DNA from: Minisyncoccota bacterium
GTDB taxonomy: Bacteria > Patescibacteriota > Minisyncoccia > Phycocordibacterales > CALRHW01
NCBI GenBank assembly: GCA_046350795.1
Contig: JAXLZT010000001.1
Coordinates: 484,705 to 548,704 of the forward strand
Length of the DNA: 64,000 nucleotides
Direction of reading: 5' to 3'
The notes under the pieces were generated by a model. The model searched no databases. It worked only from the letters and a program-made list of their open reading frames with translations, and was not told where the DNA came from. Below, piece after piece: positions 18,655 to 35,460 of the stretch. A program made the translations under genes and the position numbers. How positions within the stretch are numbered: the first letter of the stretch is position 1; each line of letters opens with the position of its first letter.

Positions 18655-18683
18655 TTTCAAAACCCGCGCCATTCTGCTATTAT
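18655..18683 (+). promoter_or_regulatory. candidate promoter (TTTCAA-17-TATTAT) for trpS, giving a leaderless transcript
   Basis: The -10 box ends 7 nt before the trpS ATG and there is no Shine-Dalgarno. Confidence 0.35.
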
Positions 18684-19677: not shown

Positions 19678-19707
19678 TCAAGATATTTAAAAATTAGGCA
19701 AACAAAA

Positions 19708-19740
19708 ACCCCGCAACAACGCAGACTCGGGGTCTTTGTT
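19708..19740. terminator. bidirectional terminator between trpS (+) and the cassette-C gene (-): ACCCCG...CGGGGT with T-rich flanks
   Basis: A GC stem flanked by A-tracts and T-tracts on both strands, sitting between the convergent stops. Confidence 0.45.
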
Positions 19741-19758
19741 GATGCGGAGTGTCTCTCA

Positions 19759-20256
19759 TCACCACGTGTAGTAGAACCTGGGATCCGTGGCAGGCGAGTA
19801 TCGATCCCCTGGGTACTTGTCTTCATTCCGGATAATTGCACCGCTTTTGCTGAGTTCAAACTGCATGTGACTCGCATTGGCGGTATATCCGTGATCGGTC
19901 GGAGTGATCTCGTTGAATGCGTACGAGATGTGCCGACCCGCTTCGTCCAAGACATACATAGCCACGTCGCGCTTGCCGAGAAGAGCCCCGTCAGAAAGAA
20001 GCCCAATCTGGTCGTAGCCCTCAAGCGAAGCAGGCATGTCCTTTTCGTTGAGGACAAACCAGAACTGACCCATTCGGCCGATCTTGGTGCCGTCTCCCAG
20101 TGTCTGGTACTCCTGCAAGATCGGCTTAATGCCAATCTGCTGGTTCACCTGGATAGCGTTGGCTTCCAGGTAGTTGATTCGCATCCTCAAATTGTGCGAA
20201 TTGCAGATCGAATCAACCGCAAACAGAAAGAGGACGAAAATCAGAGCATTCTTCAT
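19759..20256 (-). CDS. hypothetical secreted protein (165 aa, signal peptide) in GC-rich cassette C
   Basis: N-terminal signal-like sequence MKNALIFVLFLFAVDSIC. AAGGAG Shine-Dalgarno 8 nt upstream of the ATG. GC-rich codon usage. Confidence 0.55.
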   Translation of the reverse strand: MKNALIFVLFLFAVDSICNSHNLRMRINYLEANAIQVNQQIGIKPILQEYQTLGDGTKIGRMGQFWFVLNEKDMPASLEGYDQIGLLSDGALLGKRDVAMYVLDEAGRHISYAFNEITPTDHGYTANASHMQFELSKSGAIIRNEDKYPGDRYSPATDPRFYYTW

Positions 20257-20329
20257 TGGTACTTCTCCTTGTTGGTGAGGTATTTCAAACTACGTGTCAG
20301 AATTGAAACGTAGGAACAGTCTTGCCACT

Positions 20330-20358
20330 ACTTTAGCACCTTTTTGGCTATATGTCAA
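20330..20358 (-). promoter_or_regulatory. sigma70-type promoter TTGACA-17-TAAAGT (minus strand) for cassette C
   Basis: Consensus -35 box. The leader carries CTACGT...ACGTAG and TTCAA...TTGAA stems. Confidence 0.45.
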
Positions 20359-20456
20359 GCTAGTAAGAAGTTCTATTTTGCCCATATTTCTGTTATTATT
20401 CCTCATATATTTAATAAAACAGCCCGGCGAAACCGGTGCGACGAAAAAACAAAACC

Positions 20457-21851: not shown

Positions 21852-21916
21852 AAATTACAGGAATCAAAGTTTAATTGGTTAATTTCAAATTAAAGGTTTT
21901 GGTCTTAACTTTTAAT

Positions 21917-21944
21917 TTGCATTATTTGTATTATATGCTATACT
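21917..21944 (+). promoter_or_regulatory. sigma70-type promoter TTGCAT-16-TATACT for fic and the downstream hsd genes, giving a leaderless mRNA
   Basis: The -10 box ends 6 nt before the fic ATG and there is no Shine-Dalgarno. Confidence 0.5.
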
Positions 21945-21950
21945 CGACCT

Positions 21951-23087
21951 ATGGCAGACAAATACAAGTCAGGAACGCATAAGCAACATGAGGGCTACAA
22001 GAGCTTTCAGCCATCTTTGGTTAATAAGAGTTTTGAGTGGACAGACAAGCGTATTGATGTCCTTCTTGCTGATGCCATGAGATATCTCGGCGAGCTCAAC
22101 GCTTTTTCAAAGTTGGTCCCTGACGTGGATTTTTTCATAAAAATGCACATCGCAAAAGAAGCTACTACCTCAAGCAAAATTGAGGGTACACAGACAAAAC
22201 TCGATGAGGCACTTCTCCCTGAACTTGAAATTGATCCAGAAAAAAGAAACGACTGGGAAGAAGTTCAGAACTATGTAAAAGCCATCAACTACTCAATTGC
22301 AGAACTTGAAAGGCTACCCCTATCAATACGGCTTGCAAGAGATACGCATAAAGTTTTACTTTCTAGTGTTCGTGGATATACAAAACTTCCAGGAGAAGTT
22401 CGCCGAAGCCAGAACTGGATCGGTGGTGCAACCCTCAAAGATGCGGTATTTATTCCACCTCACCATGAAGAAGTTGGTGAACTCTTGAGTGATCTTGAAA
22501 GGTTTTGGCACAACAAAGAGGTTGATATTCCAGATCTTATAAAGATCGCCATCTCGCACTATCAATTCGAAACCATCCACCCATTCCTCGATGGTAATGG
22601 TCGTATTGGTCGACTGCTCATTACTCTTCACTTGGTGAGCCTTGGTATTCTTCAGAAGCCAACACTCTACATCTCAGATTTCTTCGAAAAGCATCGTCCG
22701 CAATATTACGATGGTCTTTCGCGTGTTCGCGAAACGAACGACATTGAGCACTGGTTGAGATTCTTTCTTACTGGTGTGCTTGAGACCGCAAAGAATTCAA
22801 GACAGACACTCGAGAAGATTATTGACCTTAGAAAGAAGTACGAAACAACAATCGAAAAAGGCATGGGCATCAAACGCCAAAAGCTTGGTAAGGAACTTTT
22901 GCGTTGCTTGTTCTCACAGCCAGTTGTAACGATTCGAGACATCGAGTCAATGCTCTCGGTGACATTCCCGACAGCGTCTGCAATAACAAAAGATTTTGTT
23001 AAGCTGGGTTTGTTCTCAGAGAAGACTGGGCTTAAGAAGGATCGAATCTTCTACCTTACCGAATACATTAATCTCTTTAATAAATAA
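21951..23087 (+). CDS. fic: Fic family protein (AMPylase/adenylyltransferase), class II with an N-terminal inhibitory motif
   Basis: Canonical [12 protein letters not shown] Fic motif. An upstream SSKIEG matches the [ST]xxxE[GN] inhibitory-helix motif. Confidence 0.85.
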
Positions 23088-23095
23088 TAAACATC

Positions 23096-25012
23096 ATGGA
23101 AAATTTCAACCAAAAAACATCAATGATCTGGAGTATAGCCGACATCTTACGTGGTGGCTGGAAACAGCATGAATACCAGGATGTGATATTGCCTTTGGTG
23201 GTTTTGAAGCGCCTCGATTCTATCCTTGCCGACACTAAAGCTTCGGTCCTCGAGAAATACAATGAGTATAAAGGCAAAGTGAATGACCTTGATCCTATCC
23301 TCAAGAAAACTTCAGGGACAGCCTTCTACAATATCTCTGATTACGATTTCAAAACTATTCTTGGAGAGCCAAAGCATCTCGCAAAGAACTTCAAGCAGTA
23401 CATTAACGGGTACAGCAAGAATATCCAGGACATCTTTGAGAAGTTTGATTTCAGCAAACAGCTCGAGCGTCTCGAAGGTGGTGATCTCTTGTTTTACGTG
23501 ATTCAGGAATTGAATAAAGTTGATTTGCACCCTTCAAAGGTAGACAACTATCAAATGGGACACATCTTTGAAGAACTTCTCCGAAAGTTTTCTGAAATGT
23601 CCAACGAAACCGCTGGAGAGCACTACACCCCACGAGACGTGATCGGACTTATGACCGAGATGCTCTTCTCGCCTGATAAGAAGGACCTCAAGAAACCTCA
23701 CGTTATAAAAAAGATTTATGACCCTGCCTGTGGTACAGGTGGCATGCTTTCTGTTGCTAAGGATTACATTCTCGAAAACATAAATAAAGAAGCTGACATT
23801 TTCCTTTACGGCCAAGAACTTAACTCGGTGACGTATGCAATGGCTAAGTCAGACATGCTTATCAAGGGTGATAATCCTGATCTAATTCGAGGTGGTGAAA
23901 AGGACCATTCAAAAGCAAGTACACTCGCCAACGATCAATTCTTTGCAGAAGTATTTGACTACGGACTAAGTAATCCACCCTACGGAGTTGATTGGAAGAA
24001 GGATAAGGATGCTGTAGAGCGTGAAGCATCTCGTGGATACGCTGGTAGGTTTGGTGCAGGAACTCCTCGCATTTCTGATGGACAACTTTTGTTCCTACAG
24101 CATCTCATTTCAAAGATGAAACCTGAAAAAGATGGCGGCTCACGTATTGCGATCGTTCACAACGGGTCCCCACTATTTACCGGTGATGCTGGTAGCGGAG
24201 AAAGTGAAATCCGCCGATGGATTCTTGAAAAGGATCTGCTCGAAGCAATCGTCGCATTGCCTGATCAGCTTTTCTATAACACAGGAATTAATACATACCT
24301 TTGGTTTATCACCAACAGAAAATCAAAAGAAAGAAAAAGTAAGGTTCAGCTTATTGATGCTCGCACCCTCTTCAAGAAAACTCGCAAGAGTCTTGGTAGT
24401 AAGCGACATGAGATTGACACTGAACACAAAAAACAAATTTTGGATCTGTACGAGAAATTTGAAGAAAATGAATACTCAAAGATTTTCAAGACAACAGACT
24501 TTGCATACAGACAGATCACCATTGAGCGCCCTCTCCGCCTCAAGCTTGATTTCACTCCAGAGAAAATAAAGGAGATTACCGAAACTCTTGATCCAAGCGC
24601 TATTAAAGCTGGCGTAAAGACACTCATAGAATCTTTTGAGAATCAGATATATATGAGCAAGAAGGTATTCGAAGAAGCTTTTGATAAAAGGGTTGAACAG
24701 TATGTATCAGGCAAGCTTACCGCCGCACTCTACAAAAAAATTATTTCTACCTTTAGCGAAAGTGATCCAGAGGCGGACATTGTACTTGATAAGAATGGCG
24801 ACCCAGAGGCCGACACGTCTTTGCGTGATTTTGAGAATGTTCCGTATGAGATGGATATCAAAGAATATTTTGATAAAGAGGTAAAGCCATACGTGCCTGA
24901 TGCTTGGATCAATGAATCAGTCCGAGATCACAAAGACGGTAAGGTTGGTATCGTGGGCTACGAGATTCCATTCACTCGCCACTTCTACAAGTACGAAGCC
25001 CACGAAGCTTAG
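23096..25012 (+). CDS. hsdM: type I restriction-modification system methyltransferase subunit HsdM
   Basis: N6-adenine methyltransferase motif IV NPPYG (LSNPPYGVDW); HsdM N-terminal and C-terminal regions. Confidence 0.9.
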   Translation: MENFNQKTSMIWSIADILRGGWKQHEYQDVILPLVVLKRLDSILADTKASVLEKYNEYKGKVNDLDPILKKTSGTAFYNISDYDFKTILGEPKHLAKNFKQYINGYSKNIQDIFEKFDFSKQLERLEGGDLLFYVIQELNKVDLHPSKVDNYQMGHIFEELLRKFSEMSNETAGEHYTPRDVIGLMTEMLFSPDKKDLKKPHVIKKIYDPACGTGGMLSVAKDYILENINKEADIFLYGQELNSVTYAMAKSDMLIKGDNPDLIRGGEKDHSKASTLANDQFFAEVFDYGLSNPPYGVDWKKDKDAVEREASRGYAGRFGAGTPRISDGQLLFLQHLISKMKPEKDGGSRIAIVHNGSPLFTGDAGSGESEIRRWILEKDLLEAIVALPDQLFYNTGINTYLWFITNRKSKERKSKVQLIDARTLFKKTRKSLGSKRHEIDTEHKKQILDLYEKFEENEYSKIFKTTDFAYRQITIERPLRLKLDFTPEKIKEITETLDPSAIKAGVKTLIESFENQIYMSKKVFEEAFDKRVEQYVSGKLTAALYKKIISTFSESDPEADIVLDKNGDPEADTSLRDFENVPYEMDIKEYFDKEVKPYVPDAWINESVRDHKDGKVGIVGYEIPFTRHFYKYEAHEA

Positions 25013-25082
25013 AGGAAATAGAGATTGATATAGAAAAGAGTCGAGAATGAATTGCTCACTCTCCTAAAGCAACTATAAACAT

Positions 25083-25409
25083 ATGGCTGACATTAAACTG
25101 CCACAATTAAATAACAAAGAAGAAGTTCTTACTTTCCTAAAGGAAGCGCCTGTCCAACTTGCAGAAGTTGTTACTGGAATTCTCGGATCTGAATCTACCG
25201 AATGGAAGATGTCTGCTGGCCGCATTATCCAAAGTGCGTTAAAAGGTAATCTTCTAACATGCCTTGGCAATGAACTAAAAAAGTATAAAGACAAAGGTGA
25301 AATTAAAGATGATTTCCTTGCAACAGATGCGACCAGAATGGCTTTAAATGAGATCTTAAAGATGATCGATGGTAATGATATTCGGATGAGATTAAATTTC
25401 GTGCAATAA
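25083..25409 (+). CDS. hypothetical protein (108 aa) between hsdM and hsdS
   Basis: ORF only; AT-rich. It may be the 5-prime half of a gene disrupted before the next ORF. Confidence 0.3.
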   Translation: MADIKLPQLNNKEEVLTFLKEAPVQLAEVVTGILGSESTEWKMSAGRIIQSALKGNLLTCLGNELKKYKDKGEIKDDFLATDATRMALNEILKMIDGNDIRMRLNFVQ

Positions 25410-25461
25410 AATCAATTTTTATAAGTGGTATCAATACTAATTCAACAAACGAAGATGAGTT

Positions 25462-25818
25462 TTGGCATACGAATTTTTACGCACTGCTGTAGGTGTTTCT
25501 GGTACTGAAGTTTTGATACTTAAAGCAAATTTCGCAATAGCAAACAAGCAATATGTAAATGATGTTGGAATATTGATTGAAAAAAATGCTTCTCCACACT
25601 CTAGACAAGGATGGGCAAATATAGTTTCAAAACAAATGGGCCTACAAGGGTTTAATACTCTTGTGAGTAAGTATGAAGAAAATCTTGAAAAGCTTGGACT
25701 CATTTCTCCAAGAAATTATGACAACCGATTTTCAAGTGAATTTATTCCAACAAATAAGTTTCGTCTAAGTGAGATGGGTTATAAATTCTGCCAGTTCATG
25801 ACTAAATATGAGAAATAA
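25462..25818 (+). CDS. hypothetical protein (118 aa), TTG start, overlapping the hsdS start by 11 nt
   Basis: The ORF lies in a different frame from the previous one, 53 nt downstream. It has a weak TTG start and no clear Shine-Dalgarno. Confidence 0.3.
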   Translation: MAYEFLRTAVGVSGTEVLILKANFAIANKQYVNDVGILIEKNASPHSRQGWANIVSKQMGLQGFNTLVSKYEENLEKLGLISPRNYDNRFSSEFIPTNKFRLSEMGYKFCQFMTKYEK

Positions 25819-27133
25819 TATGCAAACACTCAAACTTACAAAGAAATATGAAAAGTACCCTGAATATAAAGATTCAGGGGTTGAGTGGTTTGGAAAAGTT
25901 CCGAAAGACTGGCAAGTTGGACCGCTTAGATCTGTATTAGTTGAGAGAGTAGAGAAAAACAAAAAACTCGTAACTGACAATATTCTTTCAGTAATGAAAG
26001 ATGTTGGTGTAATTAGGTACGCGGATAAGGGTGATGTTGGCAATAAGAGTTCTGATCGGCCTGAGAATTATAAGATAGTTCACGCTGGAGACATTGTCTT
26101 AAACAGTATGAATCTTGTAATTGGTTCTGTGGGACAATCAAAAGAGCTTGGTGTTACAAGTTCTGTATATATTATTTACTATCCAAGAAACAAAGAAATA
26201 TTTGCTGATTATTACCATTACTTATTTAGAAATAAATCGTGGCAAAAAACCTTAGGGAGACTTGGTAAAGGAATAATGGAATTGAGAGAATCCATAAATT
26301 CAGATCTCCTAAAGATAGAGCCGGTTCCTATACCTCCCTTTAATCAACAGAAAGCAATAGTAGCCTTTCTTGATAAAAAAACTTCTTATATTGATCGAAT
26401 CATCGAGAACAAACAAAAATTAATTGAGCTTTTGCGTGAGAAACGCACATCGGTTATTAATAATGCCGTTACAATAGGTCTTACTCAGAAAGTTGAGCTT
26501 GTTGAAAGTGGTATTGCTTGGATTGGGAAGATGCCAAAGGGATGGAGATTAGACAAGATCAAGAGAGTTGCTCTTATAAATAAAAAGACTCTATCAGAAA
26601 ATACTAACCCTAATTTTTCCTTCAAATATTTTGATATTGGATCGGTTGATGAAGAAGAAGTGTCTAATGTTGAAAGTGAAATAACTTTTGAAAAAGCACC
26701 GAGCCGAGCAAGAAGAATTGTTAGTGTTGGAGACTCAATAATTGCCACCGTCAGAACATATCTCAAAGCAATCGCTTACTTCGATAAGTTAGATACTGAT
26801 ACAGTAGCTTCTACTGGTTTTGCTGTCTTAACCCCCAAAAAAGAATTGATTCCAAAATATCTTTTTTATTATCTACAATCAGATAGATTCATTAACCAAG
26901 TAATCATTAAGTCAAAAGGTATAGGCTATCCGGCAATTACACCTTTTGATCTTGGTTCTTTAGAAATAATCTACCCTGATAAAAACATCCAACAATCAAT
27001 TGTTACCTATCTTGATGAAAGTGTAAATAAATATAATTCAATTATTGAAAAAGCCGAAAAATCAATAAATCTTTTAAGCGAGTTTAAGTCTTCACTGATA
27101 TCAAGTGTGGTAACAGGAAAAATTAAAGTATAA
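25808..27133 (+). CDS. hsdS: type I restriction-modification system specificity subunit HsdS
   Basis: Two target-recognition domains separated by conserved central and C-terminal helical repeats (LxxKRxxLI...) typical of HsdS. Confidence 0.85.
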   Translation: MRNNMQTLKLTKKYEKYPEYKDSGVEWFGKVPKDWQVGPLRSVLVERVEKNKKLVTDNILSVMKDVGVIRYADKGDVGNKSSDRPENYKIVHAGDIVLNSMNLVIGSVGQSKELGVTSSVYIIYYPRNKEIFADYYHYLFRNKSWQKTLGRLGKGIMELRESINSDLLKIEPVPIPPFNQQKAIVAFLDKKTSYIDRIIENKQKLIELLREKRTSVINNAVTIGLTQKVELVESGIAWIGKMPKGWRLDKIKRVALINKKTLSENTNPNFSFKYFDIGSVDEEEVSNVESEITFEKAPSRARRIVSVGDSIIATVRTYLKAIAYFDKLDTDTVASTGFAVLTPKKELIPKYLFYYLQSDRFINQVIIKSKGIGYPAITPFDLGSLEIIYPDKNIQQSIVTYLDESVNKYNSIIEKAEKSINLLSEFKSSLISSVVTGKIKV

Positions 27134-27137
27134 ATAT

Positions 27138-28379
27138 ATGTTCGGACCAACTTTTGACGATTATTATAGAAAAGCTATCGAGATGTTCAATCAAGACATC
27201 TTGAGGGAGTCTGATGAGCAAATTTTAGGATCAGAAATAGATGATCTTGCAAATTTCTATTGTCAGAAATATGCCCTGGTCCCATTAGTATTCGATCCAG
27301 CAGATTTATCGTATGAAATGAAAAAAGAGGTTCGTCGAGTACCCGCTCATCAGCGTGATGAATTTTATCGATACCAGGGTGATACAGAATTTGAATATGA
27401 ATCCGCAGTGCTTTCTTTTCCTATTCAAGCTAATCCAAATTTAGACTGGTTGAAAAAGTTATCGGGGCCAGTGCATCATATGGATGGATTTGACCAAAGA
27501 GTAGTATACGGTCCCAGTGAGATTTCTTATTCCTTTGATGTTAAGTGGTATGGTGGCCATTCAAGCGAAGATAGTATTGCGAACGAAATTAATACAAAAT
27601 CACAAAGAATCATTGAGAGTCTAAACCAAAAGAACTCTAGTATTGAATCTGGCAATGCAGCACTTCTGAGAACAATCAAAGATGGAATCACTAAACGCAA
27701 AGAAAAATTATTAAGTGATAAGGAGAAATTGAGCACGCTTACTCAGAAAATAAAAATACCTCTAAAACAAAAAACTAATCCCTCTGCTACGAAGATTCAA
27801 GTAGATGTTAAAAAGTTTGTCCATGTTGTAAAGCCAACACCTAAATTACCAGCAGAATATACGCTTGAGGAATCGATCCTGAAAGATATTTTGGGATTTG
27901 TTGATAATCAATGCAGAACATTTGAGAGAACTCCTGGTGCTTATAAGCAATTAGGAGAAGAGCAACTTCGTGATGTAATCCTTTCTGCGCTAAATGGTAT
28001 TTTTGAAGGCAATGCTACTGGAGAAACTTTCGTCAAAAAAGGAAAAACTGATATACATCTTAAAATTGAGAAAGGAGAAATTTTGATTTTTGAATGTAAA
28101 AACTGGGATGGAGAAAAGATATATCTAGAGACCATAGACCAATTGATGGGATACGTTACCTGGAGACAAAACTATGGCGTTGTGATCATGTTTTCGAAAA
28201 ATAAAGATTTTTCAAAAATACTAGCTCAAATACCAGACATTATTCAAAAGCATACGCAATATAAATCAGGATTCAAACAGTTAAACAGCAACCATTTTGT
28301 ATCCGACCACACTCTTCCCGAGGATTCTGGTAAGACAATAAAGGTACATCACTTGATATATAACATTTACAGCGAATAA
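27138..28379 (+). CDS. hypothetical protein with a C-terminal PD-(D/E)xK nuclease-like core, in the hsdS-hsdR slot (candidate abortive-infection or defence effector)
   Basis: C-terminal ...KTDIHLKIEKGEILIFECKNWDGE...QLMGY gives D-x14-E-C-K in a beta-strand context. No P-loop is present. It is tightly packed between hsdS and hsdR with a 1-nt gap. Confidence 0.45.
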   Translation: MFGPTFDDYYRKAIEMFNQDILRESDEQILGSEIDDLANFYCQKYALVPLVFDPADLSYEMKKEVRRVPAHQRDEFYRYQGDTEFEYESAVLSFPIQANPNLDWLKKLSGPVHHMDGFDQRVVYGPSEISYSFDVKWYGGHSSEDSIANEINTKSQRIIESLNQKNSSIESGNAALLRTIKDGITKRKEKLLSDKEKLSTLTQKIKIPLKQKTNPSATKIQVDVKKFVHVVKPTPKLPAEYTLEESILKDILGFVDNQCRTFERTPGAYKQLGEEQLRDVILSALNGIFEGNATGETFVKKGKTDIHLKIEKGEILIFECKNWDGEKIYLETIDQLMGYVTWRQNYGVVIMFSKNKDFSKILAQIPDIIQKHTQYKSGFKQLNSNHFVSDHTLPEDSGKTIKVHHLIYNIYSE

Positions 28380-28380
28380 T

Positions 28381-31350
28381 ATGACAACAAAAACAAACAC
28401 AAAAGAATCAGGATTTGAAGAATTTATTGAGCAAGAGCTCAAGTGTCTTCATTCATACCGAACCCGATCAACCTCTTCATATAACAAAGAGCTTTGTATG
28501 GATACCGAGTTGGTCCTCGAGTTTATTCATACAACACAGAAAGATAGTTGGGATAAATTAGTTGAACAATATGGTGGCGATGTTGCCAATCGATTCTTGG
28601 CTAGACTAGATGAAGAGCTTCTTTCTCGTGGTCTTTTGAGCGTACTTCGTGAGGGTGTGAGAGATCGTGGTGTTACGATTAAGCTCGCATATTTCAAACC
28701 TGAAAACGATAGAAACCCCGAGACACTTGCCGACTACGCAGGGAATATCTTGAGCGTAATGCGCCAGGTCAAATATAGTGCCAAGAACGAGAACTCTATC
28801 GACATGGTTATCTTTGTAAATGGTCTTCCTCTCTTTACCGCTGAACTCAAGAATCAATTCACTGGACAGAATGTTATCAATGCAATTTCACAATACAGAA
28901 CTGATCGTGATCAGAAAGAAAAGTTGCTTGGATTTAAGAGATGCCTCACACACTTTGCGGTGGATACCGAACAGGCATACATGACCACTCGCCTCACAGG
29001 GCTTACTACCTACTTCCTACCATTCAACAAAGGTAACAATGGATCATCAGGTAATCCCGATGCACCAAAAGGAAAATATAAAACTCATTATCTCTGGGAA
29101 GAAATCTGGGCAAAGTATAGTATCTTTGATTTGATCGGAAATTTTATACAGGATGTGACCGAAGAGAAAGAGGATAAGAACGGTAAAAAGCAAAAGGTGG
29201 AGAAAGTTATCTTCCCTCGATACCACCAGCTTGAGACAGTAAAGAGAATCGTAGAAGATGCCAAAGCCAATGGTGCAGGTAAAAACTATTTGATTCAGCA
29301 CAGTGCAGGGTCCGGAAAGAGTAATACTATCGCATGGACAGCGCACAGACTTGCCGAACTTCATGCTGTTGAAGGAAAGAATGTATTTGACGGAGTAATT
29401 GTTGTAACTGATCGACGAGTGCTTGATAGACAGCTTTCAGATACCGTTAAAAGCTTTAGCCAGGTAACTGGTCTAGTTAAGCATGTAGAAAATGGTGGTA
29501 AAGAGCTTAAAGAATCACTCGAATCAGGAGTGAAAATCATTACAACAACCTTGCAGAAGTTTCCAGTTATCGTTGATGCCATAGAAAAAGTTGAGGGTAG
29601 AAAGTTTGCCGTAATCATTGATGAGGCGCACTCATCACAATCAGGAGAATCGGCGGCCGATTTGCGACAGGTCCTCACACTTGATGAAGCTGAAAAAGAA
29701 AGTCAGGAAGAAGAGAAAGCATTTAAGACAATTGAAGATCAGATCGTTGAGCGTATGAAGGCGCGAAAAGTTGCGTCTCCAAATTTGTCATTCTTTGCCT
29801 TTACAGCTACTCCAAAGCAAAAGACTCTTGAATTATTCGGTACGGAAGACGTGGTGACTGGTAAATTCGGTCCTTTTTCACTGTACTCGATGAAGCAAGC
29901 CATTGAAGAAAAATTCATTCTTGATGTGCTTAAGAATTACACAACCTACGAAACCTACTTCGGACTTTTGAAGAAAGTAGAAGATGACCCTGAGTTCGAC
30001 AAGAAAAAGGCTCAGCGACTTATGGTTGGATATGTTGAGCGACATGAGCATGCTATTGATAAAAAGGTGGCTATTATGGTTGAACACTTCGAGGAAAAGA
30101 TCGCCTCGCTTATTAATGGCAAGGCAAAAGCTATGGTGGTGACCAAGTCTCGACTCCATGCGGTCCGTTATAAGATTGCATTTGATAAGTATCTTAAAGA
30201 AAAAGGATACACACACAAAGCGTTGGTAGCTTTCTCTGGAACAGTTAAGGATGTTGATACCAAACTTGAATACACCGAAGGTCAGATGAATAAGGTTCCT
30301 GAAAGTCAGACTGCCGAGGAATTCAAAAATGATGATTACAAGTTTCTGATCGTAGCCGAGAAGTTCCAGACTGGATTCGACCAGCCACTATTGTCGGTAA
30401 TGTATGTAGATAAGAAACTTGGTGGTGTTGGTGCGGTCCAGACTTTGTCTCGACTTAATCGAACCACATACAACAAAGAAGAAACCTTTGTTCTTGATTT
30501 CGTAAACCAGACTGATGATATCAAGGATGCCTTCCAACCTTACTACACAACTACTGTTCTCTCAGAAGCGACAGATCCAAACATCCTGCATGATCTTGAG
30601 CGAGATGTGCGTGGGTTTAAGTTCTTCACTGATTTTGAGGTTAATGGCTTTATCGATGAACTCTATTCAAGAGCAACTCCTGACAAGCTCAATTATATTA
30701 TCGACGGCGTAGTCTCTCGCATCAACGAAGAAAACCTTACTGAAGAAGAAATGGAGAGTTTCAAGTCTACGGTATTTGATTATCTCAAGAAGTACGCATT
30801 CATCTCACAGATTGTAACCTTCGAAGATCCTCAGCTGGAAAAGTTGTTCATATTCTTGAAGTATTTGATTAGAAAGCTTCCTAAGCGTGAAAACCCACTA
30901 CCATATGAGGTCCTTCAGGCAATAGATATGGAAACATACCGAGTGGAAAAGAAAGGTGAAATGCATCTTCAACTCGAAAATGCTGAAGGCCTTATTGAGC
31001 CTATGGGCGGTGGCGATTCAAAGAGTCAAACCGAAGAAGAGAAAGATGCACTGTCTCGAATTATTAAGGAAGTAAATGAAAGATATGGAACCAACTTCAA
31101 TGATGGTGACCGAGTGATCCTTAATGATTTGAGTAAGCGACTACTTGAAAGCGAGATCCTTCAGGGTTCAGTGATGAACAACAGCAAAGATGCCGCTAAG
31201 TTGAAATTTGATCAACTCTTCCAGGACGAGCTCGTGAGCGTGCTTGATAAGCACTTTAGCTTGTATCAAAAGTTGGACCAGAGTCCAGAGCTCAAGAAGT
31301 TCGTGCAAGAACGAGTGTTCGAATTTGTGGTTAAGAAAATGAAAAAATAA
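28381..31350 (+). CDS. hsdR: type I restriction enzyme R subunit HsdR
   Basis: Walker A (SAGSGKSNT) and DEAH-like (VIIDEAHSS) helicase motifs; 989 aa with an HsdR N-terminal nuclease region. Confidence 0.9.
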   Translation: MTTKTNTKESGFEEFIEQELKCLHSYRTRSTSSYNKELCMDTELVLEFIHTTQKDSWDKLVEQYGGDVANRFLARLDEELLSRGLLSVLREGVRDRGVTIKLAYFKPENDRNPETLADYAGNILSVMRQVKYSAKNENSIDMVIFVNGLPLFTAELKNQFTGQNVINAISQYRTDRDQKEKLLGFKRCLTHFAVDTEQAYMTTRLTGLTTYFLPFNKGNNGSSGNPDAPKGKYKTHYLWEEIWAKYSIFDLIGNFIQDVTEEKEDKNGKKQKVEKVIFPRYHQLETVKRIVEDAKANGAGKNYLIQHSAGSGKSNTIAWTAHRLAELHAVEGKNVFDGVIVVTDRRVLDRQLSDTVKSFSQVTGLVKHVENGGKELKESLESGVKIITTTLQKFPVIVDAIEKVEGRKFAVIIDEAHSSQSGESAADLRQVLTLDEAEKESQEEEKAFKTIEDQIVERMKARKVASPNLSFFAFTATPKQKTLELFGTEDVVTGKFGPFSLYSMKQAIEEKFILDVLKNYTTYETYFGLLKKVEDDPEFDKKKAQRLMVGYVERHEHAIDKKVAIMVEHFEEKIASLINGKAKAMVVTKSRLHAVRYKIAFDKYLKEKGYTHKALVAFSGTVKDVDTKLEYTEGQMNKVPESQTAEEFKNDDYKFLIVAEKFQTGFDQPLLSVMYVDKKLGGVGAVQTLSRLNRTTYNKEETFVLDFVNQTDDIKDAFQPYYTTTVLSEATDPNILHDLERDVRGFKFFTDFEVNGFIDELYSRATPDKLNYIIDGVVSRINEENLTEEEMESFKSTVFDYLKKYAFISQIVTFEDPQLEKLFIFLKYLIRKLPKRENPLPYEVLQAIDMETYRVEKKGEMHLQLENAEGLIEPMGGGDSKSQTEEEKDALSRIIKEVNERYGTNFNDGDRVILNDLSKRLLESEILQGSVMNNSKDAAKLKFDQLFQDELVSVLDKHFSLYQKLDQSPELKKFVQERVFEFVVKKMKK

Positions 31351-31358
31351 TCTTATTT

Positions 31359-31835
31359 ATGAAAAAACTGACAGAAGAATTTGTTCAGAAACAAGTAGAA
31401 AAATATCTGCATGATAAGGGTTGGAATCACAACCTTAAATCAAAGGGCTTGCGTGAACATGGCTGCGATATTGTGGTATCAGATGGTAATAATAAATACA
31501 AAGCGCGCCGATTTTTCATAGAATGTAAGGGTCGATCTTACTCAAAACACGCTCGTTCAATTGCAGATACAAATATGCTGTATGGTTTAGGTCAATTGGT
31601 AACTAGAATGAAGGTGATAGCTAAACATGCTTACAAATATGGTTTGGCTCTTCCGAAGGAAAGTGCAGACATTGCACTCCGTAGGATACCGTGGCAAGTT
31701 GCACGTCAACTCTGTTTAAGTATTTTTTCAATAGACGATTCTGGTATAGTTACAGAATATTCACCAAAAGATTTTAAAAAATTTAATAAAAAACAACCCT
31801 CAAGCACGCGTAATCACAAATACCGGTGTAGGTAA
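31359..31835 (+). CDS. small PD-(D/E)xK-fold protein, YraN/UPF0102-like
   Basis: HGCDIVVSDGNN...FFIECKGR matches the D...ExK core and resembles the GEIDLI...VEVKxR block of YraN-type endonucleases. It has a C-terminal extension. Confidence 0.35.
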   Translation: MKKLTEEFVQKQVEKYLHDKGWNHNLKSKGLREHGCDIVVSDGNNKYKARRFFIECKGRSYSKHARSIADTNMLYGLGQLVTRMKVIAKHAYKYGLALPKESADIALRRIPWQVARQLCLSIFSIDDSGIVTEYSPKDFKKFNKKQPSSTRNHKYRCR

Positions 31836-32253
31836 AAAGCTAGATGAGATAGGTCTGCCGTACGAGATTGTAGAGGGTCGAGCAAATACTGATATAAATG
31901 GTGTGACTATAGAAGCGTTTGATGGAAAACATGAAGAGATTTTCCTCGAGATTGGTCAGGTGCAAAATACTGGATATTTTATAGACAACACACTCTTCTA
32001 TCCCGGTGACTCTTTTCACAATCCAGAAAAGCCAGTGGATATACTCGCTCTTCCTGTAGCTGGCCCGTGGTGTAAAATCTCTGATGCAATCAGATATGCT
32101 CTCGCAGTAAAGCCAAAGAAAGCTTTTCCTGTGCATGATGGAATATTGCAAAAAGATCGCATAGGTAGCTCTCACAAAGTACCTGAAAAAGTACTTGCCG
32201 AAAACGGCATTGAGTTTGTGATTATGAATGAGGGGGATGAGATGATACTGTAG
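31750..32253 (+). pseudogene. 5-prime-truncated remnant of an MBL-fold metallo-hydrolase gene
   Basis: The open frame (from 31750; GTG at 31903) encodes only a C-terminal MBL-fold half (...DILALPVAGPW...KKAFPVHDG...). The N-terminal HxHxDH region is missing, and the upstream part overlaps the preceding ORF out of frame. Confidence 0.45.
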
Positions 32254-32279
32254 ACTTATTCTTATTTTAGTGGTACAAT
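32251..32279 (+). promoter_or_regulatory. candidate promoter TAGACT-17-TACAAT for GC-rich cassette D
   Basis: Hexamers with a 17-nt spacer about 55 nt upstream of the cassette-D ORF. Confidence 0.35.
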
Positions 32280-32320
32280 CTTCCAAGTTACATTTGTACC
32301 TTATCAACAAACTTCAGTTC

Positions 32321-32367
32321 GCCATAGCCTACAGTGGCTTTAAATAGGCCTTTGTCGGCTATGGCGA
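32321..32367 (+). promoter_or_regulatory. leader stem-loop: 10-bp perfect inverted repeat CGCCATAGCC...GGCTATGGCG enclosing an ATG of the cassette-D ORF
   Basis: Perfect 10-bp arms separated by about 27 nt; an in-frame ATG lies inside the 3-prime arm. Coordinates are approximate (+/-2). Confidence 0.45.
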
Positions 32368-33125
32368 CACAGTGTTGCCCGCTAGCACTTCACAATGCCA
32401 TCCGTTTTACACGGACTGGCTCTACAGGAGACTGCCTAATGGGCACCTCAAATCCATCCTTTCAGACCAGCCAGATGCGTAAGGTTGAGGATACGCTACA
32501 TGAACAAGGGGTTACCCCAGAGATTCTGCAGAGAAACCTACTCGAGGGGGGTTATCTGTCGGACATTGCAGAAGCTGCGGCGTTTGGAGTACTTCCTTCT
32601 CGTAAGGAACTGCGCAATCTCTATGGTTTGAATGCGAAGACAAATCCACATCACAGCATCGTGATCAACTACGGCACGAAGAAGAATCCGAGAACACTCG
32701 GGGAGATGATCAGTTCGATAGAAGAGCTCCTTTGTGATCGTGATTCGAGTGGCTCCACGAAGACCTTTCGGGAACAGGGTCGCGTTGAGTATTTCACTCT
32801 TGTTGCAAACTTCCCCAATAAACTTCCTGATCCGAAAGCACTTCATCGCTTTCTGTCAGCGGAACCCGGCGGGAAACTCTGGATGTACGGAGGAATCGAA
32901 CACCTCGTGCATATCGACTGGAGTCAAACTTCGATTTTGGGGCCAAAGGCCCAGCTCTATGCACCAGGAGGAGCAATCCACTTCGGAAGAAATGATGAGG
33001 ACGTGCTCGTACCATACCTCACAATTAATCAGCATGGTAAGAAGTGGCTACGGTGGGAACTCAACCCATTTAGGAATGGTGTTGTTGAACTCAAGATCCT
33101 GCTTGTACGCAAGGTCAGCAACTGA
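32334..33125 (+). CDS. hypothetical protein (up to 263 aa) in GC-rich cassette D
   Basis: A GC-rich ORF whose start could be the GTG or one of the downstream ATGs. It has its own promoter-like hexamers and a strong terminator. No recognisable domain. Confidence 0.5.
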   Translation: MALNRPLSAMATQCCPLALHNAIRFTRTGSTGDCLMGTSNPSFQTSQMRKVEDTLHEQGVTPEILQRNLLEGGYLSDIAEAAAFGVLPSRKELRNLYGLNAKTNPHHSIVINYGTKKNPRTLGEMISSIEELLCDRDSSGSTKTFREQGRVEYFTLVANFPNKLPDPKALHRFLSAEPGGKLWMYGGIEHLVHIDWSQTSILGPKAQLYAPGGAIHFGRNDEDVLVPYLTINQHGKKWLRWELNPFRNGVVELKILLVRKVSN

Positions 33126-33139
33126 AGAAAGAACACGAG

Positions 33140-33169
33140 CCCGATCGCAATTGTGCGGTCGGGCTTTTC
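33140..33169 (+). terminator. intrinsic terminator of cassette D (CCCGATCGCA-attg-TGCGGTCGGG followed by CTTTTC)
   Basis: A 10-bp stem with one G-U pair, followed by a U-rich tract. Confidence 0.55.
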
Positions 33170-33191
33170 AATATATGTTAGTATTATTTTT

Positions 33192-33959
33192 ATGCTCACC
33201 GTAAAAACCCCAGTATTTGAAGGCCCGCTAGACCTGCTACTATCGCTCATCGAAAAGCGCAAGCTTTTTATAAACGACATCTCGCTTTCAAAAGTAACAG
33301 ATGATTATATTTCATACATAAACTCACCGGAAGGCAATCAAAATATTTCTCTCGGCGCCCGCGCTCACTTTATACTCGTCGCTTCGACACTTCTCCTCAT
33401 CAAATCAAAATCTCTTTTGCCGACACTTAGTCTGACAGAAGAAGAGCAAGTAAGTATCGAGGATCTCGAGGCGCGACTAAAAGAATACAAAAGAATAAAA
33501 GAGCTCAGTGTGCACGTGCGCGAAAGATTTGGCCGACACATTCTTTTTACAAAAATTCCACGCAAAAATGTGGCACCTGTTTTTTCTCCTGAAAAAAGTA
33601 TCACTGTCAGTGGACTTTTGATGGCTATAAAAGACGTCATAAAAAATATTCCGAAAATAGAGGCAATACCGAAAGCTGTTGTAAAAAAAGTTATTAGCCT
33701 AGAAGAAATGATAGAGCGACTGACAGACAGAGTAAAAGCTGGTCTCAAAATGAGTTTTAGAGAATTTGCCGGAGCTCATGGAAAAGGTGCGGGCAAAGTA
33801 ATCCCGCGTGAAGAGCGTGTCAATATCATCGTGAGCTTTCTCGCTATGCTAGAACTCGTAAAACAGGGTATTATAAACGTACATCAGGAAGACAGACACA
33901 ATGACATACACATGGAAACACAAGACGTGTCATTGCCTTCATATGGTTCACAAAATTAA
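33192..33959 (+). CDS. scpA: segregation and condensation protein A
   Basis: N-terminal FEGPLDLLLSLI motif. The ATG at 33192 (MLTVKTPV...) is preferred over the track start at 33153, which overlaps the cassette-D terminator. Confidence 0.85.
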   Translation: MLTVKTPVFEGPLDLLLSLIEKRKLFINDISLSKVTDDYISYINSPEGNQNISLGARAHFILVASTLLLIKSKSLLPTLSLTEEEQVSIEDLEARLKEYKRIKELSVHVRERFGRHILFTKIPRKNVAPVFSPEKSITVSGLLMAIKDVIKNIPKIEAIPKAVVKKVISLEEMIERLTDRVKAGLKMSFREFAGAHGKGAGKVIPREERVNIIVSFLAMLELVKQGIINVHQEDRHNDIHMETQDVSLPSYGSQN

Positions 33960-33971
33960 CATCGCAAAATA

Positions 33972-34523
33972 ATGACCACAGATTTACTCATAGAAGCATT
34001 ACTTTTTTTCAAAAATGAGCCGATAACGGTGAAAAAAATCGCGCAAGCGATAGAAAAAACGGAAAAAGAAGTAGAGACAGCGCTCGCGCAAATAGAAACA
34101 TCTTTTTCTGGTCGTGGCATACGACTCATGCGAAATGGTGATGAAGTCATGCTCGCTACAGCGCCAGAAGCAAGCGATCTCATCGCAAAAATAACAAAAG
34201 AAGAGCTGACTCGCGATCTCGGTAAAGCCGGCCTCGAAGTCCTCTCAATCATTTTATACAAAGGGCCAATATCTCGCCGAGAAATAGACTACATTCGCGG
34301 AGTAAATTCTAATTTTATTTTACGCAACCTGCTCGTGCGCGGTCTCGTAGAAAAAACTGAAAGCAAAGAAGGCGAGCGAAGCTTTACATACAAGCCGACC
34401 TTCGAACTTCTTTCATATATGGGGATAAATAAAATCGAAGATATGCCAGAATATACAGATATGAAAAAAGAGCTAGAAGTTTTTGACGAAAATCTAAACA
34501 AGGAAAGTGATGTGGAACAATAA
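33972..34523 (+). CDS. scpB: segregation and condensation protein B
   Basis: Tandem winged-helix ScpB domains (IEALLF...EPITV...). Confidence 0.85.
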   Translation: MTTDLLIEALLFFKNEPITVKKIAQAIEKTEKEVETALAQIETSFSGRGIRLMRNGDEVMLATAPEASDLIAKITKEELTRDLGKAGLEVLSIILYKGPISRREIDYIRGVNSNFILRNLLVRGLVEKTESKEGERSFTYKPTFELLSYMGINKIEDMPEYTDMKKELEVFDENLNKESDVEQ

Positions 34524-35460
34524 AGAGATCTCAGACAAAATAGTGGTGCCAATGGTCTCACTAGCGATTATACTCGTGCTCTTTTTGCTGTACTGGGGAT
34601 CAATGAAAAGTGTAAAAACTGATTCTATAATCCAATCAATAGCACAAAAAGAAAAATATAATGAGGAGGCTTTTGATGATATAAAAATTTCTGCAAAATC
34701 AGCGATGGTCTGGGATATAAAAAACCATAAAGCTATTTATTCATATAACCCAGATTTGGTTTTGCCTTTAGCTTCTCTTACAAAAGTGATGATGGCGATC
34801 ACAGCAAGTGACCTAGTGCCAGCATACACAGTGGTACCTATTAAAAAAGAATTTTTGGCAGAGGAGGGCGACTCTGGTTTTAAGGTAGATGAAAATTGGC
34901 GACTAAAAGATTTGCTTGATTTTAGCTTGATTACTTCATCAAACGACGGCGCACGAGCGATAGCTTCTGTAGCTGGCGCTATTAGTGGTGGCGCTTCTAC
35001 ATATGACATAGGACGAAAAGAGTTTGTAGACAGAATGAATGAGAAAGCAAAAAAAATAGGCCTCGACTCAATGTATTTTTCAAATGAAAATGGTCTAGAT
35101 GCAAATGCTTCTTTAGGTGGTGCTTATGGAAATGTAAAAGATGTGGTCAAACTTTTTGAATATGCTTTAAAGACAACTCCACATATTATTGAACCAACAA
35201 AAAAGAGTAGTGCCGTAATAAAATCAATAGACAATGTAGATCACGTCGCCAACAACACCAATTATGAAGTAAATTTAATACCTGGAATCATCGCCTCAAA
35301 GACTGGATACACAGCGCTCGCTGGTGGCAATTTGGCAATAGTTTTTGATGCTGAGCTTGGCCGACCAATGATCATTTCTGTGCTCGGATCGACCCTAGAA
35401 GGCCGATTTACTGATGTAGATAAGCTTATAAAAGCTAGCAGGACATATTTAGCGCAGTAG
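34507..35460 (+). CDS. D-alanyl-D-alanine carboxypeptidase (serine-type, PBP5/DacA-like)
   Basis: SxxK (ASLTK), SxN (SSN) and KTG motifs; N-terminal membrane anchor. Confidence 0.8.
   Translation: MMWNNKEISDKIVVPMVSLAIILVLFLLYWGSMKSVKTDSIIQSIAQKEKYNEEAFDDIKISAKSAMVWDIKNHKAIYSYNPDLVLPLASLTKVMMAITASDLVPAYTVVPIKKEFLAEEGDSGFKVDENWRLKDLLDFSLITSSNDGARAIASVAGAISGGASTYDIGRKEFVDRMNEKAKKIGLDSMYFSNENGLDANASLGGAYGNVKDVVKLFEYALKTTPHIIEPTKKSSAVIKSIDNVDHVANNTNYEVNLIPGIIASKTGYTALAGGNLAIVFDAELGRPMIISVLGSTLEGRFTDVDKLIKASRTYLAQ

Follow-up and report, generated by a model that had tools for sequence, protein, structure and literature searches.

What a long block of Type I restriction-modification (R-M) genes with other genes embedded in it does in a member of the Patescibacteria, and how it came to be there, is the question raised by the segment between aspS and scpA in the 64,000-nt stretch of DNA analysed here (the window; contig JAXLZT010000001.1, positions 484,705 to 548,704). 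The host is represented by a metagenome-assembled genome (MAG) of Candidatus Paceibacterota (Patescibacteria). Bacteria of this group have tiny genomes and are mostly without CRISPR. The block is probably a horizontally acquired, layered anti-phage operon on a modular Type I R-M backbone, which is now immobilised and partly eroded.

Organisation of the block and its R-M genes

The block is co-oriented and tightly packed on the plus strand (21951-31835) and encodes, in order, Fic, HsdM, the gene of a first cargo slot (slot 1), HsdS, a 413-aa open reading frame (ORF; orf413), HsdR and a 158-aa ORF (orf158). Its 3′ neighbour is a gene for a metallo-beta-lactamase (MBL)-fold hydrolase without its 5′ end (Table 1). 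A Type I R-M island with embedded cargo in this gene order had been described in an earlier sequence-only reading of this DNA, and all of the ORFs were recovered in place on the plus strand. With the exception of the broken slot-1 gene, the gaps between genes are 1-8 nt, making the block operon-like, as was also held by that reading. The GC mosaic that it described was confirmed in its contrast, with values slightly lower than those it gave for hsdM and hsdR: GC content is 0.424 for fic, 0.421 for hsdM and 0.411 for hsdR (window mean 0.384), against 0.344 for the slot-1 reading frames, 0.336 for hsdS, 0.355 for orf413 and 0.367 for orf158.

The Type I R-M set is complete by Pfam, PADLOC and NCBIfam. 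HsdM possesses the Pfam domains HsdM_N and N6_Mtase (3.2e-62), matches PADLOC MTase_I (1.8e-257) and carries the motifs DPACGTG at residue 209 (S-adenosylmethionine) and NPPY at residue 293. HsdS shows Pfam Methylase_S in two stretches and PADLOC Specificity_I over residues 12-441 (3.2e-97); alignment to its homologues in the sister islands described below places its true ATG probably at 25820. HsdR has Pfam HSDR_N, SWI2_SNF2/ResIII and T1R_D3-like domains and a match to TIGR00348 (2.7e-61), with D141, E155 and K157 (E155xK157), GSGKS at residue 310 (Walker A) and DEAH at residue 414.

Sister islands and cassette slots

Contig look-ups of homologues showed that at least five other environmental contigs share the backbone Fic-M-S-PDC-S54-R, where M, S and R are the Hsd proteins and PDC-S54 is the family of orf413. 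At the DNA level the backbone is 75-88% identical between the window and these sisters, which lie in unrelated genomic contexts, while Fic, HsdM and HsdR are 87-97% identical. HsdS has conserved 5′ and 3′ ends common to the sisters, with swapped target-recognition domains of 32-51% identity between islands. DNA homology sets in at 21870-21889, 62-81 nt ahead of the fic start codon, breaks exactly at the M|S junction and inside the target-recognition domains of HsdS, and stops with the termination codon of hsdR (31350). These sharp limits define three cassette slots, at M|S, at PDC-S54|R and after R.

The sister copies are arranged as Fic-M-S-413-R-DUF4357(PDC-S14)-162aa (contig L001), Fic-M-DUF2130-S-413-RhuM(PDC-S05)-R-HARE_HTH-398aa (L002/L003), Fic-M-orf245-S-413-R-SIR2-HerA (L090/L091) and Fic-M-DUF2130-S-413-R-HTH_36-recombinase (L176), with the slots thus occupied by DUF2130, RhuM/PDC-S05, DUF4357/PDC-S14, HARE-HTH or SIR2-HerA. 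Sister islands therefore hold as many embedded genes as the window or more, and such embedding is documented (PMC12255303, PMC11411939, bioRxiv 10.1101/2024.01.29.577857), so that for this lineage the cargo cannot be called unusually rich, as was first proposed. The operon copy in L090 (6798-16270) is intact.

Both L090 and L176 encode a large serine recombinase at a distance of 1.6-3.8 kb from the Fic-to-HsdR backbone, and in L002 one is degraded to fragments. These three contigs also have in common a 110-117-aa gene upstream of fic. In the 64-kb window tblastn detected no serine recombinase, and the left-arm genes of the sisters are absent as well. Large serine recombinases also accompany the Type I R-M systems of two further Patescibacteria contigs, L087 and L089 (Table 1). 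The elements of L002 and L087 (a contig with an unrelated R-M system, see below) end beside the same host genes (PF1765-like and hpf), which suggests a shared integration site for these two.

Table 1. Positions of the features of the aspS-scpA segment (window numbering) and of large serine recombinases on other contigs.
Feature	Sequence	Position	Strand	Remarks
Whole variable segment	window	21852..33191	+	aspS stop to scpA ATG, 11,340 nt
Conserved upstream region with promoter	window	21870..21950	+	DNA homology to sister islands from 21870-21889
fic	window	21951..23087	+	SoFic-type class II Fic AMPylase (predicted), 378 aa
hsdM	window	23096..25012	+	638 aa; residual coding sequence to 25078, stop TAA 25076-25078
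Slot-1 pseudogene of 245-aa family	window	25083..25818	+	orf108 25083-25409 and orf118 25462-25818
hsdS	window	25820..27133	+	two target-recognition domains; ORF listed from 25808
orf413 (PDC-S54)	window	27138..28379	+	N-domain 1-204, disordered linker ~208-240, C-terminal nuclease (predicted) 245-413
hsdR	window	28381..31350	+	989 aa, apparently intact
orf158	window	31359..31835	+	small stand-alone PD-(D/E)xK nuclease-fold protein (predicted); family homology to 31796
MBL-fold hydrolase remnant	window	31798..32253	+	5′-truncated, ~62 codons gone including HxHxDH
Inverted repeat	window	32319..32367	no strand	20-nt arms, 9-nt loop
orf263	window	32334..33125	+	orphan ORF, status uncertain; GC 0.50, inside variable segment
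Large serine recombinase	L002	18747..20452
Large serine recombinase	L087	12901..14469
Large serine recombinase	L089	12984..13323
Large serine recombinase	L090	1498..3105
Large serine recombinase	L176	15841..17505

Fic protein and promoter region

The first gene of the block encodes a protein with the Pfam domains Fic_N and Fic, a Fic motif (HPFx[D/E]GN[G/K]RxxR type) at residue 210 and, upstream of the Fic core, the inhibitory motif SSKIEG at residue 74. A motif of the form (S/T)xxxE(G/N) in an N-terminal inhibitory helix defines class II Fic proteins (PMC12249575), and the class II assignment made in the sequence-only reading was thus borne out. The protein matches PADLOC SoFic (3.5e-116 over 5-359/361) and the SoFic structures 3zcn and 9tcl in the PDB (~1e-36), with residues 41-377 aligned to 42-367 of 3zcn. 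On NCBIfam NF046030 it scores 178.7 bits, under the equivalog cut-off of 550 bits, and is accordingly a homologue of SoFic and not an equivalog. From these matches the fic product is predicted to be a SoFic-type class II AMPylase. SoFic of Shewanella oneidensis has been published as a single-gene defence acting by AMPylation and abortive infection (PMC12249575; bioRxiv 10.1101/2022.05.11.491447). The two proteins are alike in their architecture over the full length, in the Fic motif and in the motif of the N-terminal inhibitory helix. They differ in that SoFic stands alone, whereas fic here invariably heads an R-M operon, and in that only 8 nt separate fic from hsdM, too little for a downstream antitoxin gene such as the 47-aa AS1.

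A promoter scan ahead of fic identified a -35 hexamer TTGCAT (21917-21922), a 16-nt spacer and a -10 hexamer TATACT (21939-21944), followed after 6 nt by the ATG; the spacer becomes 17 nt when the -35 is read as TTTGCA. Alignment of the promoter regions of four islands showed TTTGCA to be unchanged and, by eye, a -10-like hexamer (TATACT, TATTAT or TAGGAT) to lie 6 nt 5′ of the fic ATG in all of them. The 6-nt spacer before the ATG is variable in sequence, and no Shine-Dalgarno sequence precedes fic in the four aligned islands. This geometry would fit a leaderless fic mRNA. Such a promoter had been singled out by the sequence-only reading; its geometry and conservation agree with that proposal, while starts of this kind appear to be normal in this genome. 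No Shine-Dalgarno-like sequence was seen ahead of any gene inspected between window positions 18660 and 36600, and TATTAT-like hexamers were observed 5-7 nt ahead of the start codon in trpS, scpA and fic alike. Leaderless initiation is thereby suggested to be widespread in the genome, and the fic start is then not a special feature of the island. Directly 5′ of the -35 (window 21885-21916), an AT-rich and partly palindromic stretch was observed in the four islands (in L001, AGTTAATAGATTAACT), which may be an operator.

orf413, a member of PDC-S54

orf413 matches PADLOC PDC-S54 end to end (3e-85, residues 6-411 on profile positions 13-407/410), and Pfam recognises no domain in it. The PDC sets take as their basis the embedding of genes in BREX, DISARM and Type I R-M operons, and their members are untested candidates (bioRxiv 10.1101/2024.01.29.577857); a literature search found no paper naming PDC-S54. 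The AlphaFold model, built from a 68-sequence alignment (predicted local distance difference test score 85.5), shows an alpha+beta N-domain closing with a long helix (residues 1-204), a disordered linker and a C-domain (residues 245-413). In the model the C-domain adopts what is predicted to be a restriction-endonuclease-like alpha/beta core of the PD-(D/E)xK type, resembling BamHI and OkrAI. D305 and E319 are invariant, K321 is present in at least 90% of sequences and nearly all invariant columns fall in the C-domain, while the N-domain is the variable part of the family. A Foldseek search of the PDB with orf413 returned weak nuclease matches (E ~0.01), spurious polymerase-beta matches and nothing for the N-domain. 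Sequence searches of the PDB (including profiles) with orf413, orf158 and the 245-aa family of slot 1 gave only noise.

The orf413 family numbers 187 members. Relatives sharing 43-64% identity with orf413 occur singly, with R-M genes absent from their surroundings, in Pedobacter polaris (near an integrase) and on one Patescibacteria contig. Homologues at 25-30% identity were found on plasmids, either beside the reverse transcriptase of retron Ec67 or near hsdS, HigBA and a restriction enzyme, and scans of viral contigs gave three partial relatives. The stand-alone and defence-neighbouring members indicate that the family is autonomous and defence-associated and is not an obligate Hsd subunit. 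The position of orf413 within a Type I R-M operon is as the PDC-S54 set was defined; added here are the structural reading of a variable N-domain joined to a putative nuclease C-domain and the occurrence of the family both embedded and alone.

orf158

The family of orf158 comprises 204 proteins with a length of about 145 aa, and every member with an informative organism name is from Patescibacteria. D37, E55 and K57 are invariant in the family. The nuclease fold ascribed to this ORF in the sequence-only reading was upheld in the form of a PD-(D/E)xK core, and orf158 is predicted to be a small PD-(D/E)xK nuclease. No PADLOC model covers it, and searches placed it in no sequence family, with only a sub-threshold match to NOV_C. 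One relative lies immediately 3′ of hsdR in a 70%-identical R-M system of a Taylorbacteria MAG (L089), another follows hsdR of an unrelated EcoR124-type system with a 17-nt overlap (L087), and a third has an EcoRI-like R-M pair on one side and a Shedu SduA_C gene on the other (L085). Scans of viral contigs returned two relatives of 43% identity in phage-like contigs. The 162-aa gene of L001 was considered as a relative and rejected, tblastn giving no match at E <= 1e-5. Compared with the nuclease core of HamA, XisH-like proteins and small PD-(D/E)xK proteins of the Hjc/NucS type, orf158 lacks a helicase partner such as HamB, and it differs from small stand-alone PD-(D/E)xK proteins in its recurrent place immediately 3′ of hsdR, seen in two further Patescibacteria loci.

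Slot-1 gene and erosion of the block

Between hsdM and hsdS the sequence-only reading had placed two small ORFs (orf108 and orf118), which proved to be one gene. When the two were joined as a query, homologues P0241-P0243 were recovered, each of 245 aa, 72-89% identical and covered at 100%. Relative to these intact copies the window gene (orf245) carries two 1-nt deletions at ~25381 and ~25460. In place of the four non-canonical genes originally counted, the block thus holds three intact ones and one pseudogene. This 245-aa family gave 24 matches in 5.8 billion proteins and nothing in Pfam, PADLOC, NCBIfam, PHROG or the PDB. Cluster members identical to orf118 and orf413 belong to the NCBI record of the MAG, in which MFO0718926.1 (the 118-aa half of the slot-1 gene) and MFO0718928.1 are both annotated as hypothetical proteins. 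A 50%-identical homologue of orf245, together with a 121-aa partner ORF, was observed between pheS and pheT in another Patescibacterium, away from R-M genes (L093 10001-11090; L094 5537-6626).

The 3′ end of hsdM (24995-25080) is also altered: a -1 deletion (GAAGC-CCACG) is followed some 40 nt later by a +1 insertion, and an in-frame TAG falls between the two. Through this pair of indels the final 22 codons are lost, leaving HsdM at 638 aa compared with 660 aa in five sisters; the catalytic core is entirely retained. Four indels consequently fall within 460 bp (25000-25460), shared between the end of hsdM and the gene in slot 1, and none were found in the other ~8.5 kb of coding sequence. They reflect decay confined to this region, or else a consensus error of the MAG at this place.

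The block might also be an inert relic, a decaying island whose defence has been lost, and the four indels, the absence of the recombinase and of the sisters' left-arm genes and the truncated MBL gene would agree with this. It is unlikely all the same, given that Fic, HsdS, orf413, HsdR and orf158 are full-length with all of their catalytic motifs, the promoter is conserved, the HsdM core is whole and the indels are restricted to 460 bp and may be assembly errors. This likelihood and those attached to the other readings were judged separately and need not sum to one.

Proposed mode of action

As a layered anti-phage operon, the block would act at several levels. The R-M complex would restrict unmethylated DNA. 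Fic would bring about abortive infection by AMPylation, in the manner published for SoFic, PDC-S54 would be an autonomous effector whose variable N-domain senses infection and whose C-terminal nuclease cuts nucleic acid, and orf158 would provide an additional nuclease. With all components co-expressed, a second layer would await phages that escape restriction.

A different arrangement would make PDC-S54, and perhaps Fic, a functional partner of the Hsd complex, which would hold a latent nuclease in check and free it when a phage inhibits restriction. PrrC works in this way as an Hsd-restrained latent nuclease with EcoprrI, and prrC occupies the same position between hsdS and hsdR. PrrC is almost exclusively R-M-embedded (cited in bioRxiv 10.1101/2024.01.29.577857). 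The geometry of the backbone is in keeping with such a partnership: orf413 lies between hsdS and hsdR in six of six copies, 4 nt past the hsdS stop; the hsdR ATG follows 1-2 nt past the orf413 stop unless RhuM is between them (the exception, L176, has a 118-nt gap); and Fic is fixed 8-12 nt ahead of hsdM. We nevertheless regard a guard of this kind as quite unlikely. Members of PDC-S54 at 43-64% identity occur alone without R-M genes, and distant ones lie by retron or toxin-antitoxin genes; RhuM can be inserted between orf413 and hsdR with both kept; and the six embedded copies all belong to one lineage of the backbone and so amount to roughly one evolutionary event. orf413 also shows no similarity to PrrC models. 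More broadly, the sequence-only reading had pointed to anticodon nucleases as cargo of such loci, and no PrrC/RloC-type match was obtained for any cargo ORF with PADLOC, Pfam or NCBIfam.

The larger proposal that Type I R-M has co-evolved with Fic and PDC-S54 into one functionally coupled system (PDC-S54 and/or Fic remaining latent until a phage anti-restriction protein disables Hsd), and that orf158 and the 245-aa family are new defence genes specific to ultra-small bacteria, is similarly doubtful. If it were true, the coupled system would count as the second 'restriction guard', with a mechanism different from the first.

The MBL remnant and the 3′ end of the segment

The MBL remnant covers only positions 59-160/160 of the Pfam Lactamase_B_3 profile. 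Its start aligns to residue 63-64 of homologues of 211-214 aa (best identity 60%), the alignment running over their residues 63-211; residues 1-62 of the homologues, including ITHEHGDH (the HxHxDH metal site), are absent from it, and from its sequence it is taken to be a pseudogene. The frame is open back to ~31747 and overlaps orf158, the final 13 codons of which are read from MBL-derived DNA in another frame. With the homology of orf158 ending at 31796 and that of the MBL gene starting at 31798, a sharp junction is placed at ~31790-31800, in an A-rich run. We read this junction as the trace of a deletion within the variable segment, in which the DNA following orf158 was lost as well, and with it perhaps the mobility module of the sisters.

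Beyond the remnant, orf263 has a GC content of 0.50 (0.51 at third codon positions), far above its surroundings. It gave nothing in Pfam, PADLOC, NCBIfam or PHROGs and no relative in a metagenome scan or a phage database, and may be a foreign orphan gene or non-coding. 3′ of the MBL remnant and ahead of where orf263 probably starts, an inverted repeat with arms 85% complementary was observed.

The insertion site

Scans with AspS and ScpA gave 160 related Patescibacteria loci, 73 of them with both genes, in which the synteny is trpS-aspS-scpA-scpB-pbp-mraY. The gap between aspS and scpA is at most 150 nt in 30 of the 73 loci, 151-1000 nt in 28 and more than 1 kb in 15, the largest being 8.9 kb. 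In many relatives the two genes are directly adjacent, in support of the insertion proposed from sequence. None of the 160 loci has a homologue of any island gene, of the MBL gene or of orf263 at this position. The 5′ truncation of the MBL gene reported in the sequence-only reading is therefore real, while its host origin is not demonstrated, and the remnant is to be seen as part of the variable segment. The closest AspS relatives (L005 and L038) have a different downstream synteny. The gaps of relatives were considered as defence hotspots and this was rejected, their inserts being mostly metabolic (aminopeptidases, GNAT, transporters).

A 1.65-kb contig of another sample (L095, SRR14234072) is 100% identical to 33192-34614 (scpA-scpB) and unrelated upstream of the scpA ATG; its positions 1-232, opposite window 32960-33191, were observed to hold a different gene on the minus strand. 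The divergence indicates strain-level variation, or else a chimeric short contig; located at the scpA ATG, it extends the variable segment to 33191, which would then vary at strain level. Rfam and tRNA scans of the window were empty, and there is thus no tRNA attachment site. On the other side of aspS, the 780-nt trpS-aspS gap (19678-20456) holds a minus-strand ORF of 165 aa (19759-20256; GC ~0.52) with a signal-peptide-like N-terminus; as trpS and aspS are adjacent in many relatives, this gap looks like another small insertion.

It is very improbable that the block is ancestral at this locus and was lost by relatives, with the MBL gene a host gene cut by local deletion and not by island entry: the gap is variable (the inserts inspected among the 15 of 73 loci above 1 kb being aminopeptidases, GNAT and others) and no attachment-site repeats were found, but no island gene, MBL gene or orf263 homologue occurs there in 160 related loci, the backbone is 75-88% DNA-identical to copies in unrelated contexts, three of them with a serine recombinase nearby, the GC mosaic is unlike the flanks, and the contig with 100%-identical scpAB has another upstream neighbour.

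On the reading of a horizontally acquired operon, an integrative element, or its R-M module, would have entered the aspS|scpA hotspot, later deletions would have taken the mobility genes and the 5′ end of the MBL gene, and the copy would now be eroding. Several points weigh against this history and the layered function. As regards acquisition, no species-level genome with an empty site was found (the best match of a metagenome scan with ScpA was 66% identical) and no attachment sites, direct or inverted repeats or target duplications flank the block, so that the route of entry is only inferred. As regards erosion, the four clustered indels could be consensus errors of the MAG instead of decay. 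As regards function, the R-M system may be impaired by the loss of the conserved 22-residue tail of HsdM; the 43%-identical relative of orf158 in a phage-like contig means that its role need not be defence; the N-domain of orf413 has no confident structural match, making 'sensor' a guess that rests on its lower conservation; and no paper found gives experimental support for PDC-S54, orf158 or orf245.

Comparison with known systems and significance

The closest known systems are RptR-HsdM-HsdS-DarTG2-HsdR of enteropathogenic Escherichia coli (EPEC; PMC12255303), the Type I R-M locus of Vibrio cholerae VPI-2 with TgvAB (PMC11411939) and EcoprrI/PrrC. In these, as in the window, cargo lies between the hsd genes, above all at hsdS|hsdR, known as a hotspot for embedding (PMC12255303, PMC11411939); the genes run in one direction as an operon-like block, and the site acts as a recombination hotspot with genome-specific cargo. 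The window differs from them in its cargo (a SoFic-type Fic, PDC-S54, a 245-aa orphan and a small PD-(D/E)xK protein), in having three slots and not one, in its Patescibacterium host and in the serine recombinase near three of its sisters. Unlike the EPEC system, it has no RptR-like repressor gene.

The embedding of PrrC, DarTG2 and TgvAB in R-M operons is established, as are the characterisation of SoFic and the cataloguing of PDC-S54. New are the occurrence of such an operon in a Patescibacterium, the backbone with its three slots and, in three sisters, a serine recombinase nearby, the structural reading of PDC-S54 and two uncatalogued candidate families, orf158 and orf245. The known picture of genes embedded in Type I R-M operons is extended by this locus and not changed. 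The comparison yields a testable parts list, consisting of PDC-S54 with a predicted nuclease site and two families absent from PADLOC. The locus bears on phage resistance in Patescibacteria, in that ~10 kb of a ~0.56-Mb contig (562,216 bp) is spent on what is probably a stacked defence operon.

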